A stretch of 4,855 nucleotides of DNA, taken from positions 1 through 4,855 of the IMG/VR virus record IMGVR_UViG_3300015156_000014, one strand, 5' to 3'. The translations under genes were made by a program, and so were the position numbers. This document shows positions 1 to 4,855 of this stretch, in pieces (position 1 is the stretch's first letter; each line of letters starts with the position of its first letter). The DNA comes from a virus. Taxonomy: Duplodnaviria > Heunggongvirae > Uroviricota > Caudoviricetes. The notes below the pieces were generated by a model that saw only the letters and a list, made by a program, of their open reading frames with translations, was not told where the DNA came from and ran no database searches.

Positions 1-51
1 CGGCGACCACCGAGATCTACACTCTTTCCCTACACGACGCTCTTCCGATCT
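1..51 (+). other. Illumina TruSeq universal adapter remnant (synthetic, non-biological)
   Basis: Bases 1..51 (CGGCGACCACCGAGATCTACACTCTTTCCCTACACGACGCTCTTCCGATCT) match the 3' portion of the TruSeq universal adapter as I recall it. Bases 22..51 are the exact reverse complement of bases 4826..4855. Confidence 0.9.
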
Positions 52-1115
52 ATGACGTGTATATCAACGCGTGGTACCCGTTGAACGCTTCCGGTTCGAT
101 GGTGACTGACCAGAACCCCAACAGCCCGTTTTTCCAGGAAGCCAATAAAAAAATGAAGATTGGTGGGAAAGACTGGCATCCGTCACGCACACTGAAAATC
201 TTCAACGGCACACCGATTTATCTGGAGTTTCAGAGTTCATCGTTCGGATTCACCGGACGAAGTGTGTTTCAGCGCGTTCTTTATTCCCTGAAATCCTATA
301 TCAACACGATGGAGGCGAATGATCTCGTCAGCCAGAAGGCAGGCGTACTGGTGGCTAAAGTTGTGCAGAACGGTTCGAAACTTGACGGGATCATGGCTGC
401 CGCCACGGGACGAAAAAGGGAAAATGTCAAAGAGGCAAAAAATAAAGGTGTGCTTAGTATCGGGAAAGATGAGGACGTTACCTCGCTGAATTTACAAAAC
501 ATCGATGGCGCGCTAAATGCCGCCCGCGACAACATTATTTCCGATATTGCATCAGGTAGCGATGTTCCCGCGATTCTCATCAAGGAGGAGGCTTTCTCGA
601 ATGGTTTCGGTGAAGGAACTGAGGACTCGAAAGCTATCAGCCAGTATATCGATGGTGTACGCCAGCAGATTGAACCCGTGATGGATTATTTCGAACGCCT
701 GGTGCAGTACATCGCCTGGAACGAGGAATTTTATCAGTCGCTGAAAAATGATTACCCGGACATCATAACTGACGACTATAAAACCACGTTTTACCAGTGG
801 CGACGTGAATTTACCGCGACGTGGCAGGAGCTGGTGGAGGAGTCGCCGGACAAACGCCGGGAAAGCGACAGTAAAGTGATTCAACAGGCGATAGCACTTT
901 TCTCTGCCGTGTCGCCACAGGTTGATCCTGAAAACCGTGCCGCCGTCACTGAATGGCTGGCAAGCCTTGTTAATGTCACGCAAACCTATGGCGCAGCTCC
1001 ACTCATCATTGATGTGGACGCGCTGGCGAATTATGAACCACCGAAGCAGGAGACGCCTGATGGCAATTTCCAGCCGGGCGGTGAGGAAGAAGAAACGGAT
1101 CAGAACGCTGTATGA
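52..1115 (+). CDS. Portal-like protein, C-terminal portion (5'-truncated at the adapter junction)
   Basis: Frame is open from the window start through the adapter to the TGA at 1113..1115, so the GTG at 57 in the ORF track is not the real start. The translation is protein-like and ends in an acidic tail (PGGEEEETDQNAV). The portal call rests on position, immediately upstream of minor head, scaffold and capsid-like genes; the family assignment is inference. Confidence 0.75.
1048..1052 (+). promoter_or_regulatory. Shine-Dalgarno (AGGAG) for the CDS starting at 1060
   Basis: AGGAG lies 7 nt upstream of the ATG at 1060, inside the 3' end of the upstream CDS. Confidence 0.55.
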
Positions 1116-1893
1116 GGTTCTGACGGATGCCGTTAACTACTACGTAAATCACGGGTGGGATAGCGAAAAATCATTGCTCGAATGGTGCCGGAAACTCCGT
1201 GTAGCCGCTCAGCGAGAAACCCCTGATGATACCGTAGCCAGAAAACATCTCACCGCTATCTACAGCCGTCTTGTCATCGACGGCGGGGCATTACGGGATC
1301 AGCCTCCTGACGGCCCTAAAAAAATCACTGTTGAAAAACTGAAACCTGAGTTTCGCAAGGAACTCGACAGGCGAATTTTCGCCAGTGCCAACCTGATAAA
1401 ACTCAACCGCGAACAGGCTATCGAGAAAACCATACAGCGTTTTCAGGGGTGGGTTACGTCCATTCCCCCTGACGGGGTGAGCGAAATTGATCGCCGGGAA
1501 GTGAAGGCCGGGTTTCAGAAATCCGTGAAGGATATGGATTTTATCAGTCGTCGGGTGGCAATTGACCAGGGGCATAAGCTGGCAAGCAACGTTAAGTATC
1601 TGCTGGCTGTTCAGAGTGGAGCGATTGCTCTGCGCTGGCATTCGAACTGGCGGCGTCCGGGCTACAAATACCGACAGGACCACAAAGAGCGCGACGAGAA
1701 AATTTATCTCCTCCGCGATTCGTGGGCACTGGAGCAGGGACTGATTAAGCCCGTATATGGTTTTTATGACGAAATCACTGCTGCCGGGGAGGAGGTTTAT
1801 TGCAGTTGCGATGCTCTGCCGATCTACGCCCCTCAGAAACTACCCGACGAATTTTTAACGGAGAAGGGCAAACGTGAGTTTAACAGAACTTGA
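1060..1893 (+). CDS. Putative minor head / head-morphogenesis protein (277 aa); function uncertain
   Basis: ATG at 1060 is preceded by AGGAG with a 7-nt spacer. The tracked ORF begins at 922, but 922..1059 translates as Trp/Arg-rich junk overlapping the real C-terminus of the upstream gene, so 1060 is the likely start. The N-terminus is basic (RAVRKKKRIR). Placement between portal-like and scaffold-like genes is typical of minor head proteins. Confidence 0.7.
   Translation: MAISSRAVRKKKRIRTLYEVLTDAVNYYVNHGWDSEKSLLEWCRKLRVAAQRETPDDTVARKHLTAIYSRLVIDGGALRDQPPDGPKKITVEKLKPEFRKELDRRIFASANLIKLNREQAIEKTIQRFQGWVTSIPPDGVSEIDRREVKAGFQKSVKDMDFISRRVAIDQGHKLASNVKYLLAVQSGAIALRWHSNWRRPGYKYRQDHKERDEKIYLLRDSWALEQGLIKPVYGFYDEITAAGEEVYCSCDALPIYAPQKLPDEFLTEKGKREFNRT
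1860..1868 (+). promoter_or_regulatory. Shine-Dalgarno-like purine tract (GGAGAAGGG) for the CDS starting at 1874
   Basis: Purine-rich GGAG/AGGG motif 5-10 nt upstream of the GTG at 1874. Confidence 0.45.
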
Positions 1894-3196
1894 AGTGGCA
1901 GAACGCATCAGGGACGGAACCGTACCGTCTCCGGTGAAATTTTCCAACATGTGGCTGGTGAATTTGCGAATAACCGGAACCGGGCTTGCCTATCGCGCCG
2001 GGGAGAAAGAGCACGTCTGGCGTGATCCAAAGCTCTATCTGAATGAGGAGTTTTTAAGGCGATGCAATGGCCTTCCGGTTATCGCAAACCATCCTGATGA
2101 CGCAGTCCTGACGGAGGAGGATTTTAAATCGCGGATCGTCGGTAGTGTCATGCTGCCGTATATCCGGGGTGACGAGGTATGGGCAGTGTGCCGTGTTTAC
2201 CTTCAGAGCATTGTTGAAGAAATCACTGAGGGGGGTGTTTCGACAAGCCCGACGGTGGTGTTCAACAGCACATCAGGAAATGTGGAAGTACAGGAAGGTG
2301 ACACCAATTTTTTAATTGAAGGTGTTCCTTTCCTTGTTGATCACATCGCCCTGGTGACGAAAGCCCACGGCTCGCTGGGCGTGTGGGATAAAGACCGGAT
2401 CCCCGCAGGGGTTGAAGTGACAAACACAGGTGAAATCGAGATGAAAAAAGAAGAACTCCAGGCCCTGTTACAGGGGGTGGTGAACGATGCCCTGAGCGGC
2501 ATTAATCAGAAAATCGATGGAGTAGTCACGCGCATGGACTCACTGGAACAGCGGGACAAAGCGCGGGCGGATGCCGAAGAGCAGGCGAAAAAAGAGGACG
2601 AAGAAAAGGCCAAAGCCGATGAAGCCGCAGAGGAACAGCGTAAAGCTGATGAAGATGCGACAAAGAAGGCGGAAGAAAAAGCCAAAGCTGACGAGGCAGC
2701 AGACAAAGATGCTGAGGAGAAAGCAAAGGCTGATTCCGAAGCAGAAGAACAGCGTAAGGCCGACGAGGAGGCAGAAAAAGAACGCAATGATTCTGCCCTG
2801 GCAGAAGCACAGGCAAAAGCCGACTCCGCATTCAGTGCCTGCGGTAAAAACGCGCCAGCACCGTTTTCTGGCGAAAATGCGCTGGACTACCGTAAGCGTG
2901 CGCTAATCGCTATGCAGAAACACTCTCCGGCACATAAGGACGTCAATATTCGCGCGATAGCGGATTCTGCAACGCTGGCTGTGCTTGAGGACGCAATTTT
3001 CAGTGCCGCCCGTCAGTCCATCGAAAAAGAAATGATGAGCACGCAGGGGCAACTGCATAAACGTATCCGCAGCGACGAAGCCGGACGTCGCATTACTGAA
3101 TATCAGGGTGATCCGAACGTCTGGTTGGGTGCCTTCAAAATTCCGGGGCGTCGTCTGGCAAAAATTAACACTCAAGGGAGCCTGAACAATGGCTGA
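1874..3196 (+). CDS. Putative scaffolding protein, possibly a prohead protease-scaffold fusion (440 aa)
   Basis: GTG start at 1874 with an upstream purine-rich SD; it overlaps the upstream stop by 20 nt. A globular N-terminal domain of about 220 aa is followed by a strongly acidic, Lys/Glu/Ala-rich repeat region (EEKAKADEAA x3, EEQRKADE x2) typical of scaffold coiled coils. The stop at 3194..3196 overlaps the next start (ATGGCTGA). Confidence 0.8.
   Translation: MSLTELEVAERIRDGTVPSPVKFSNMWLVNLRITGTGLAYRAGEKEHVWRDPKLYLNEEFLRRCNGLPVIANHPDDAVLTEEDFKSRIVGSVMLPYIRGDEVWAVCRVYLQSIVEEITEGGVSTSPTVVFNSTSGNVEVQEGDTNFLIEGVPFLVDHIALVTKAHGSLGVWDKDRIPAGVEVTNTGEIEMKKEELQALLQGVVNDALSGINQKIDGVVTRMDSLEQRDKARADAEEQAKKEDEEKAKADEAAEEQRKADEDATKKAEEKAKADEAADKDAEEKAKADSEAEEQRKADEEAEKERNDSALAEAQAKADSAFSACGKNAPAPFSGENALDYRKRALIAMQKHSPAHKDVNIRAIADSATLAVLEDAIFSAARQSIEKEMMSTQGQLHKRIRSDEAGRRITEYQGDPNVWLGAFKIPGRRLAKINTQGSLNNG
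2599..2769 (+). repeat. Intragenic imperfect tandem repeats encoding EEKAKAD(E/S)(A/E)A and EEQRKADE(D/E)A units
   Basis: Three copies of about 30 nt at 2599..2628, 2672..2701 and 2714..2743 (gaagaaaaggccaaagccgatgaagccgca and variants). Two copies of about 26 nt at 2629..2654 and 2744..2769 (gaggaacagcgtaaagctgatgaaga and variant). All are in the coding frame of the 1874..3196 CDS. Confidence 0.75.
3174..3180 (+). promoter_or_regulatory. Shine-Dalgarno (AAGGGAG) for the CDS starting at 3189
   Basis: AAGGGAG lies 8 nt upstream of the ATG at 3189. Confidence 0.55.
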
Positions 3197-3806
3197 TATT
3201 AACTTTCATCCGTTTAAAAACCGTGGAGCATTTGGTGGCCTTTTTAACGTCGAATCCCGTGGGCTGATGCAGGGGGATGCGCAGGATGATCCGGCAATTC
3301 GTCTGCAACTTTGCTCCGGTCGACTGGACAGCAAAATCACTGATCCGGTATGGGGTGGCGTTGGAGTTATGGAGTGCATTGCTCCCGCGAAAGACAGCGT
3401 TAACGGCGCGGTAATTAAGCAGGCTACACAAAACGCATGTAACGCCTTTACGGTCTTTAATCAGGCATTTCATGGTATTACCACGCCGGATAATCCGGTG
3501 CCGTTATATCTCGCGGGTGGCTTTGTTCACTATTACCGCGTTGGCTCAGGCGCCCGCATTCCTCTCCCGGTCAGTGCAGAAGTTGTTGCGTTGGCTGATG
3601 GCAATAACACCGTTGCTGCCAGTGGCTTTGTGTGGGACCTGACGAAAAACATGGTTGATGTTTATTCGGGATCACCCGGCGCTAATCCGAAAGTGGATAT
3701 TAAGCTGCTGATGGTTTCAGTTGACGGAAACCTGACGGTGAAAAAAGAGGATGGCGGTAACGTTGTCTGGGAAATCGGCAAACCGTGCGGCCTGTTTTTA
3801 ATTTAA
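3189..3806 (+). CDS. Hypothetical phage structural protein (205 aa); possible head decoration or accessory protein
   Basis: ATG with a good SD, translationally coupled to both neighbours. Composition is Gly/Val/Asn/Ala-rich and beta-like. It sits between the scaffold-like and capsid-like genes, the position lambda gene D occupies between Nu3 and E. No recognisable motif; function is inference only. Confidence 0.75.
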   Translation: MADINFHPFKNRGAFGGLFNVESRGLMQGDAQDDPAIRLQLCSGRLDSKITDPVWGGVGVMECIAPAKDSVNGAVIKQATQNACNAFTVFNQAFHGITTPDNPVPLYLAGGFVHYYRVGSGARIPLPVSAEVVALADGNNTVAASGFVWDLTKNMVDVYSGSPGANPKVDIKLLMVSVDGNLTVKKEDGGNVVWEIGKPCGLFLI

Positions 3807-3811
3807 GGGGA
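3805..3811 (+). promoter_or_regulatory. Shine-Dalgarno (AAGGGGA) for the CDS starting at 3821
   Basis: AAGGGGA lies 9 nt upstream of the ATG at 3821, in the 14-nt intergenic gap. Confidence 0.55.
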
Positions 3812-3820
3812 TATTAATTA

Positions 3821-4825
3821 ATGAGTGCATTTACTCCTGCGACTACTATTGTGTCGCCGTCAATGGTGCTGCCGGAAATGATCGTGCAACAGAGCATGGC
3901 TTCCGGTGCGTTTGAAGTCCTGGCTGGCGGTGCTCCAGCGGTAAAAATTAGTTCCAGTGATTTGATGGTCTATCAGAAATATCTGCGCATGACCTCGCAG
4001 GCGCAGGTCGGCCAGTCTCTGCCGGGCCAGTTACCGTCTTCCAGTATCTCTGGCGGCTATGACGGGATGATGACTTACCGAATTTCTTCCCGCTCGCAAT
4101 ACAGCTATCTCGATACTGATGCAGCAGATCGCTGGGGCTATTCTCTGATTGAAGGCCTGCGCCTGGCTAACCGTCAGGGACACGCTCAAATGTTGCGTAA
4201 TATGCTGCTGTATGGCGTGAATGCAGCTAATAACGAGGGGATCACCAACTCCCCGAACGCAGTGACGCTGAATCTGGGCAACGACAGCAAAGGGAATGAT
4301 TCATATACCACCTGGGATTCCGGTGAGATGGCTAAATTTATGCTTGGCCTGATTGCTGACCAGAAAACCCGCATGTTGCTGCTGGGACAGCCATTAACGA
4401 CTGTTATTCTAAGCCCACAGCGATTCATGAAGGCGCTGGAGTGGACAGGAATTGTTGAGCTGACCAGTTACCAGCGTCCTGGTGGTGGTACCGGAACGGT
4501 GGGAACGATGGTTAAAGACGTCGCCGATAAGGCGACAGGTGATGACATCATTTTCTGCCAGGACGACACGCTGATTGGTAAAGGCGCTGGTGGTAATGAC
4601 CTGATCATCGTTACGAACCCGACGATTGAGGTTCCGGAAGCGCGTCACACCATTAACACCAATATTTTCTCCACGCTGGTACCTAACCAGCAGGCCGTCA
4701 ACGTGATGTTCTGTGATATGGCAGCGCCGACGGAAATTCCGTCCCCTATGCCGGATGGCGGCATGACCACGTTGTATACCATGCGTGCGACGCCGGGCTG
4801 GAACTTCCGCCCTGAGGGGATCACC
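3821..4825 (+). CDS. Putative major capsid protein, N-terminal 335 aa (3'-truncated at the adapter junction)
   Basis: Hand translation from the ATG at 3821 (MSAFTPATTIVSPSMVLPEMIVQQSMASGAFEVLAGG...) gives an uninterrupted frame to the end of the genuine insert and on through the adapter. It is not in the supplied ORF track because there is no in-window stop. Strong SD upstream. Its size and position directly after the scaffold-like gene suggest major capsid; the family is unverified. Confidence 0.75.
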
Positions 4826-4855
4826 AGATCGGAAGAGCGTCGTGTAGGGAAAGAG
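4826..4855 (+). other. Illumina TruSeq adapter read-through (AGATCGGAAGAGCGTCGTGTAGGGAAAGAG), synthetic
   Basis: Exact match to the canonical adapter read-through sequence as I recall it; reverse complement of bases 22..51. Confidence 0.9.

Follow-up and report, generated by a model that had tools for sequence, protein, structure and literature searches.

A long open reading frame at the end of a viral contig

The window analyzed here is a 4,855-nucleotide stretch of a Caudoviricetes virus (positions 1 to 4,855 of IMG/VR record IMGVR_UViG_3300015156_000014), in which genes for a portal protein, a MuF-like protein, a DUF2213 protein, a putative decoration protein and a capsid protein follow one another in this order, tightly packed and on the same strand. 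We focused on the last of them, an open reading frame (ORF) covering positions 3821-4825, which in our assessment is almost certainly the major capsid gene of a Rac-SA53-type Escherichia coli prophage, temperate and contractile-tailed.

From the ATG at 3821 on the plus strand, translation of 3821-4855 remained free of stops for 345 codons, up to the end of the window, in agreement with the original prediction of at least 335 open codons continuing through terminal adapter sequence. Six-frame translation of 3821-4825 revealed 0 stops in this frame and between 5 and 27 in each of the other five, so the capsid frame is the only stop-free one and the mis-read stop codon feared at the outset is absent. 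An in-frame TAA at 3815-3817 makes ATG 3821 the earliest possible start. In RefSeq, a gene copy with 98.7% identity is annotated from the same base, M1 is invariant across 44 homologues, and a Shine-Dalgarno-like AAGGGG precedes the ATG, overlapping the TAA (3804-3806) that ends the gene upstream. As had been supposed, the ORF escaped the mechanical ORF list by running off the source, since such ORFs are left out there; at a length of at least 60 amino acids, only two antisense ORFs are listed in the span. Neither of these matches a PHROG, and no ORFs are found at the corresponding positions of phage PdC23, a relative with 44% identity. Their interpretation as antisense genes was rejected on these two grounds, the lack of family matches and the lack of positional conservation in PdC23. 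They are, as the original prediction had held to be almost certain, artefacts, arising from an open antisense frame inside the coding region.

Both ends of the contig are technical rather than biological, including the truncation of the portal and capsid genes. The window opens with 51 bases (1-51) identical to the 3' end of the Illumina TruSeq universal adapter, and bases 4826-4855 match the start of that adapter's reverse complement exactly, which leaves a biological insert of 4,774 bases (52-4825) with adapter on both sides. The exact adapter in inverted orientation at both ends indicates assembly from untrimmed reads, and we flag the contig as bounded by untrimmed adapters. Since 4826-4855 is adapter, the coding sequence ends at 4825, and the last 10 translated residues (RSEERRVGKE), being adapter-derived, are not protein. 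Judged by a 99%-identical homologue of 342 amino acids (P0001, C-terminus ...GITLLSAKYA), the window holds 335 of 342 codons and lacks 7 codons and the stop. The gene is indeed cut at its 3' end, as noted originally, but the proposed extension from raw reads is hardly needed, as relatives supply the 7 codons.

Adapter at both contig ends betrays imperfect read trimming and could suggest that the long open frame itself is a product of chance or of assembly, for instance a chimera joined at the adapter. We consider this practically impossible. None of 5,000 mononucleotide shuffles of the segment 3821-4825 stayed open, the gene is 98-99% identical in 84 E. coli genomes, and the insert 52-4825 is colinear, as a single piece and at 95-96% nucleotide identity, with two independent phage records, Escherichia phage Rac-SA53 (95.3%) and 'Actinobacillus phage vB_Apl-pPE4' (95.7%). 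With independent genomes colinear over the insert, an artefact is already refuted.

Sequence families and predicted fold

The ORF product belongs to PHROG 6671, to which it shows a significant full-length match (E = 1.1e-179, residues 1-335 on positions 1-335 of the 343-position profile), although this family is itself annotated as 'unknown function'. The only labelled PHROG match was a weak one to phrog_264, 'major head protein' (2.3e-8, residues 70-185). The comparison with capsid profiles and PHROGs recommended in the original prediction therefore yielded a weak capsid signal but was otherwise nearly uninformative, the best PHROG being unlabelled and the Pfam match sub-threshold; profile hits to a non-capsid family, which would have spoken against a capsid, did not appear. 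A search of 5.8 billion proteins recovered 241 homologues of about 340 amino acids, mostly enterobacterial. PF09950 (Major_capside, formerly DUF2184) is present in several of them, and the names 'major capsid family protein' or 'DUF2184 domain-containing protein' are given to a few. Two homologues, P0037 (73% identical, 27.2 bits) and P0097 (44% identical, 29.6 bits), just pass the PF09950 gathering threshold of 26.8 bits, and PF09950 is detected at E<=1e-3 in 27 of the 44 aligned relatives. The window protein is best described as a divergent, sub-threshold relative of PF09950, homologous by transitivity and not a formal member of the Pfam family.

AlphaFold2, given the alignment of 44 sequences, produced a model with a mean predicted local distance difference test score (pLDDT) of 77.7 and a predicted template modelling score (pTM) of 0.73. 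Foldseek returned 277 matches in the Protein Data Bank (PDB) at E<=1e-3 (best E 3.3e-14, probability 1.00), and the top 50 were all HK97-fold shell proteins, comprising phage and other viral capsids with encapsulins lower down. Leading matches were the capsids of FCWL1 (3.3e-14), T1 (2.4e-13), Pa193 (4.7e-13) and E217 (4.1e-12), followed by those of Pam3, Sf11 and XM1, with query-normalised TM-scores of 0.57-0.70 at 11-16% identity. The elements that define the fold are N-arm, E-loop hairpin, spine helix, and P and A domains. Secondary structure assigned to the model by DSSP includes a long hairpin (49-59/74-84) and a 23-residue helix (109-131), consistent with a putative E-loop and spine helix, respectively.

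The same fold is shared by encapsulins, and these do occur among the fold matches (E ~5e-8 to 6e-7), which raises the alternative that the protein forms the shell of a nanocompartment and not of a virus. However, phage capsid proteins scored six orders of magnitude better in Foldseek, homologues occur in isolated phages, and the gene sits among portal, MuF, scaffold and decoration genes, to which relatives add terminase and tail sheath. An encapsulin gene would be expected next to a cargo gene or targeting peptide and away from phage packaging or tail genes, which is not the arrangement found here, and an adjacent cargo enzyme gene is absent. We regard an encapsulin as extremely improbable and effectively refuted by gene context.

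Several observations weigh against the assignment as a major capsid protein. Scans of the ORF with Pfam and NCBIfam gave nothing significant, and PF09950 emerged only at a relaxed threshold (E<=10), with 13.3 bits and E = 0.052. HMMER searches of the PDB with either the single sequence or the family profile found no solved capsid proteins. Every near-identical database record listed is a 'hypothetical protein'. In the model, three segments (1-9, 216-223 and 281-287) are of low confidence. Finally, the capsid role rests on predicted fold and synteny, as no virion proteomics or structure was retrieved for the protein or a close relative. The assignment is carried by the modelled fold and the gene context and not by direct profiles. 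Separately, DARPin/ankyrin structures in the PDB matched residues 97-155, but insignificantly (E>=0.015), and were dismissed as chance.

Genomic context of the capsid gene

Features of the window are listed in Table 1. The capsid gene occupies the position in the head module that is expected of HK97-fold major capsid proteins, behind portal and scaffold/protease genes and ahead of head-tail connector and tail genes. Together with the HK97 fold, the weak phrog_264 match and the PF09950 homologues, its slot right after the decoration gene bears out the original suggestion of a major capsid gene.

Table 1. Annotated features of the 4,855-nucleotide window.
Feature	Positions	Strand	Basis
Illumina TruSeq universal adapter, 3' 51 bases, non-biological	1..51		exact string match
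Portal protein gene, 5'-truncated by adapter	52..1115	+	phrog_146, 5.2e-45
MuF-like head morphogenesis protein	1060..1893	+	phrog_324, 4.5e-37; start from RefSeq homologue, uncertain
DUF2213 protein, 440 aa, putative prohead protease/scaffold	1874..3196	+	PF09979, PHROG 6216
Putative capsid decoration/cement protein, 205 aa	3189..3806	+	PHROG 6268, 'unknown function'
Shine-Dalgarno-like AAGGGG	3805..3810	+	10 nt upstream of ATG 3821; read from sequence, function inferred
Major capsid protein gene (predicted HK97 fold), 3'-truncated, codons 1-335 of 342	3821..4825	+	open frame, PHROG 6671, 342-aa homologue, AlphaFold and Foldseek
Antisense ORFs (artefacts)	4186..4428 and 4409..4648	-	mechanical ORF list
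Illumina TruSeq universal adapter, reverse complement, non-biological	4826..4855		exact string match

At the 5' end of the module, the full-length Rac-SA53 homologue of the truncated portal protein matches phrog_146 at 6.9e-74. RefSeq, through the Prokaryotic Genome Annotation Pipeline (PGAP), names a portal homologue (L002, 10859-12295) 'anti-CBASS protein Acb1 family protein' despite PHROG 146 matches of 5e-45 to 7e-74; the family name is apparently misleading.

The DUF2213 protein exceeds the PF09979 cut-off (26.9 bits against 22) and shows weak matches to head maturation protease PHROGs. It contains a variable Ala/Glu/Lys-rich helical region at approximately residues 226-326 (~2549-2851), in which it differs from its Rac-SA53 counterpart by a 10-residue indel, and it is the least conserved protein of the window in that comparison (92%, against 98-99% for its neighbours). 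Tandem Repeats Finder detected no array in this part of the gene. Relatives of the protein are labelled 'TolA protein', 'nudix' or 'nudix hydrolase'. The TolA label is spurious and stems from the Ala/Glu/Lys-rich region; a TolA identity was rejected, with 29.5 bits against a cut-off of 59.45 and a match that covers the low-complexity stretch alone. Neither the DUF2213 protein nor the family profile of the 205-amino-acid protein retrieved anything meaningful when searched against PDB sequences.

Close relatives and prophage state

Of 5,426 complete E. coli genomes, 84 (~1.5%) carry the capsid gene at 95-99% identity, and all 90 matching places in these genomes are chromosomal. In Rac-SA53, terS, terL and portal genes precede the module, and small head-tail genes and a tail sheath gene (phrog_205) follow it, so the phage is contractile-tailed; no other capsid candidate was found among the flanking genes.

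The chromosomal location of all 90 places fits a prophage, and the names of the relatives derive from the cryptic Rac prophage. The gene could thus belong to a decayed element that no longer builds virions. We consider this very unlikely. All five head genes of the window are intact, and their products are 92-99% identical to those of Rac-SA53, which was deposited as a complete phage genome, while the capsid protein is 99.4% identical in vB_Apl-pPE4, deposited as an isolated phage. Furthermore, amino acid identity (99%) exceeds nucleotide identity (~95-98%), which argues for purifying selection.

Some of the matching records deserve caution in their own right. The vB_Apl-pPE4 record (PP818812.1) names Actinobacillus pleuropneumoniae as host, yet shares 95.7% DNA identity with an E. 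coli prophage module, reflecting either a wrong host, a picked-up E. coli prophage or a very recent transfer. The gene is also found at 98.3% in NZ_CP026085.1, labelled E. coli 'DH5alpha', as in E. coli W and its derivatives; this is unexpected in K-12 and may be a strain mislabel. Beyond the window, upstream of terS, Rac-SA53 carries pertussis-like toxin (eplBA) and LT-IIa enterotoxin (eltIIaAB) genes around the lysis cassette (L001, 1014-5176), whereas the matching positions in the region shown of E. coli 401651 hold TerB and DUF3927 family genes instead.

Distant relatives and classification

At greater distance, phages of Yersinia, Klebsiella (Chronis, RothC, RothD), Shewanella and Pantoea (PdC23) encode proteins that share 44-46% identity with the capsid protein. 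PdC23 (genus Certevirus) is one of 54 genomes counted in Felixviridae, a proposed family represented by RothD, one criterion of which is a shared syntenic structural core, RothD gp1-gp24 (PMC12629751). Within the 4.8 kb of the window, all five head genes are syntenic with those of PdC23, at 34-46% protein identity. The original prediction singled out the capsid gene as the most informative marker for classification. This is reasonable, but the gene is not special in that respect, as all five head genes lead to the same relatives, namely Rac-SA53-type E. coli prophages at ~95% nucleotide identity and PdC23 at 34-46% amino acid identity. Two further records, OK094664.1 ('Shewanella phage vB_Sb_QDWS') and OP650936.1 ('Hujiaoplasma phage zrk29-1', with a Tenericutes host), are both 47,902 bp long and gave identical match statistics; they may be one genome deposited under two very different hosts.

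Proposed assembly and comparison with known capsids

Established knowledge of HK97-fold capsids and the structures of E217 and Pa193 suggest how the head may be built. The DUF2213 protein, in its putative dual role probably also the maturation protease, would provide a scaffold on which copies of the capsid protein assemble together with the portal. These copies would make up an icosahedral procapsid of pentamers and hexamers, and the shell would mature and expand upon DNA packaging. Trimers of the 205-amino-acid protein, presumed to decorate as its counterparts do, would probably attach to the three-fold and quasi-three-fold sites and reinforce the shell as cement. By analogy with relatives whose genomes measure 47-52 kb, the triangulation (T) number is probably 7.

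None of this implies new biology. The gene is ordinary, already sequenced and widely distributed; we report no discovery but a gap in annotation, and the one thing worth noting about the gene is that the standard profile libraries leave it without a name. In the Rac-SA53 record and the RefSeq E. coli annotation examined, the module is mostly labelled 'hypothetical', 'TolA', 'nudix' or 'anti-CBASS Acb1'. Naming the capsid and decoration roles would yield better annotation for a lineage of prophages with a capsid gene that occurs in ~1.5% of complete E. coli genomes. One of its members, Rac-SA53, has genes for LT-IIa enterotoxin and a pertussis-like toxin.

A bolder possibility is that the capsid protein and its 205-amino-acid partner represent a separate branch of the DUF2184 capsid/cement pairing for which no structure has been solved. 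Its premise, judged from the searches above, is that Pfam and NCBIfam miss the protein and that no solved capsid resembles it detectably in sequence. We find such a branch rather doubtful; if it existed, assembly could differ from that of Pbunavirus and of T1/FCWL1 in T number, in N-terminal processing by the DUF2213 protein and in cement geometry.

Compared with known systems, the solved capsids of FCWL1 (9KMG), T1 (9KZJ), Pa193 (gp26, 9B40) and E217 (gp25, 8FRS) are similar in predicted fold, whereas the window protein is only 12-16% identical to them and shows no similarity by HMMER. E217 and Pa193 are virulent phages of 66 kb with T=9 shells and a capsid protein of 382 amino acids, the N-terminal 65 residues of which are unseen, in contrast to the 342-amino-acid protein of a temperate phage of ~47-52 kb considered here. 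In our model, the first ~20 residues are modelled poorly. The arrangement of the module is that of the Pbunavirus literature (E217, Pa193, JJ01). In E217, gp24 (211 amino acids, beta-tulip fold, trimeric) decorates the gp25 shell (PMC10329688). In Pa193, the neighboring genes encode gp24 (478 amino acids, putative scaffold), gp25 (211 amino acids, decoration) and gp26 (capsid), and the DUF2213 protein of the window occupies the same position as the gp24 scaffold (PMC11456595). Similarly, JJ01 has the order MuF, DUF2213, one ORF and 'DUF2184 (major capsid)' (PMC9583000).

Capsids of the PF09950 family (PdC23, Chronis, RothC, RothD) are closer, being 44-46% identical over their full length, of similar length and encoded in the same syntenic head module. 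PdC23 has the same gene order, with the homologue annotated as major capsid protein and the five head proteins at 34-46% amino acid identity, but at the decoration position it encodes a longer protein (290 amino acids), which aligns only over its N-terminal 162 amino acids. Closest of all is rac45 of Rac-SA53 (KU052037.1, ALP46877.1), which is the same gene (protein 99%, DNA ~95-99%, same flanking genes), as are the copies in the 84 complete E. coli genomes and in the vB_Apl-pPE4 record. In these records it appears as a full-length 'hypothetical protein' of 342 amino acids, whereas the copy in the window is without its last 7 codons, where the adapter begins.
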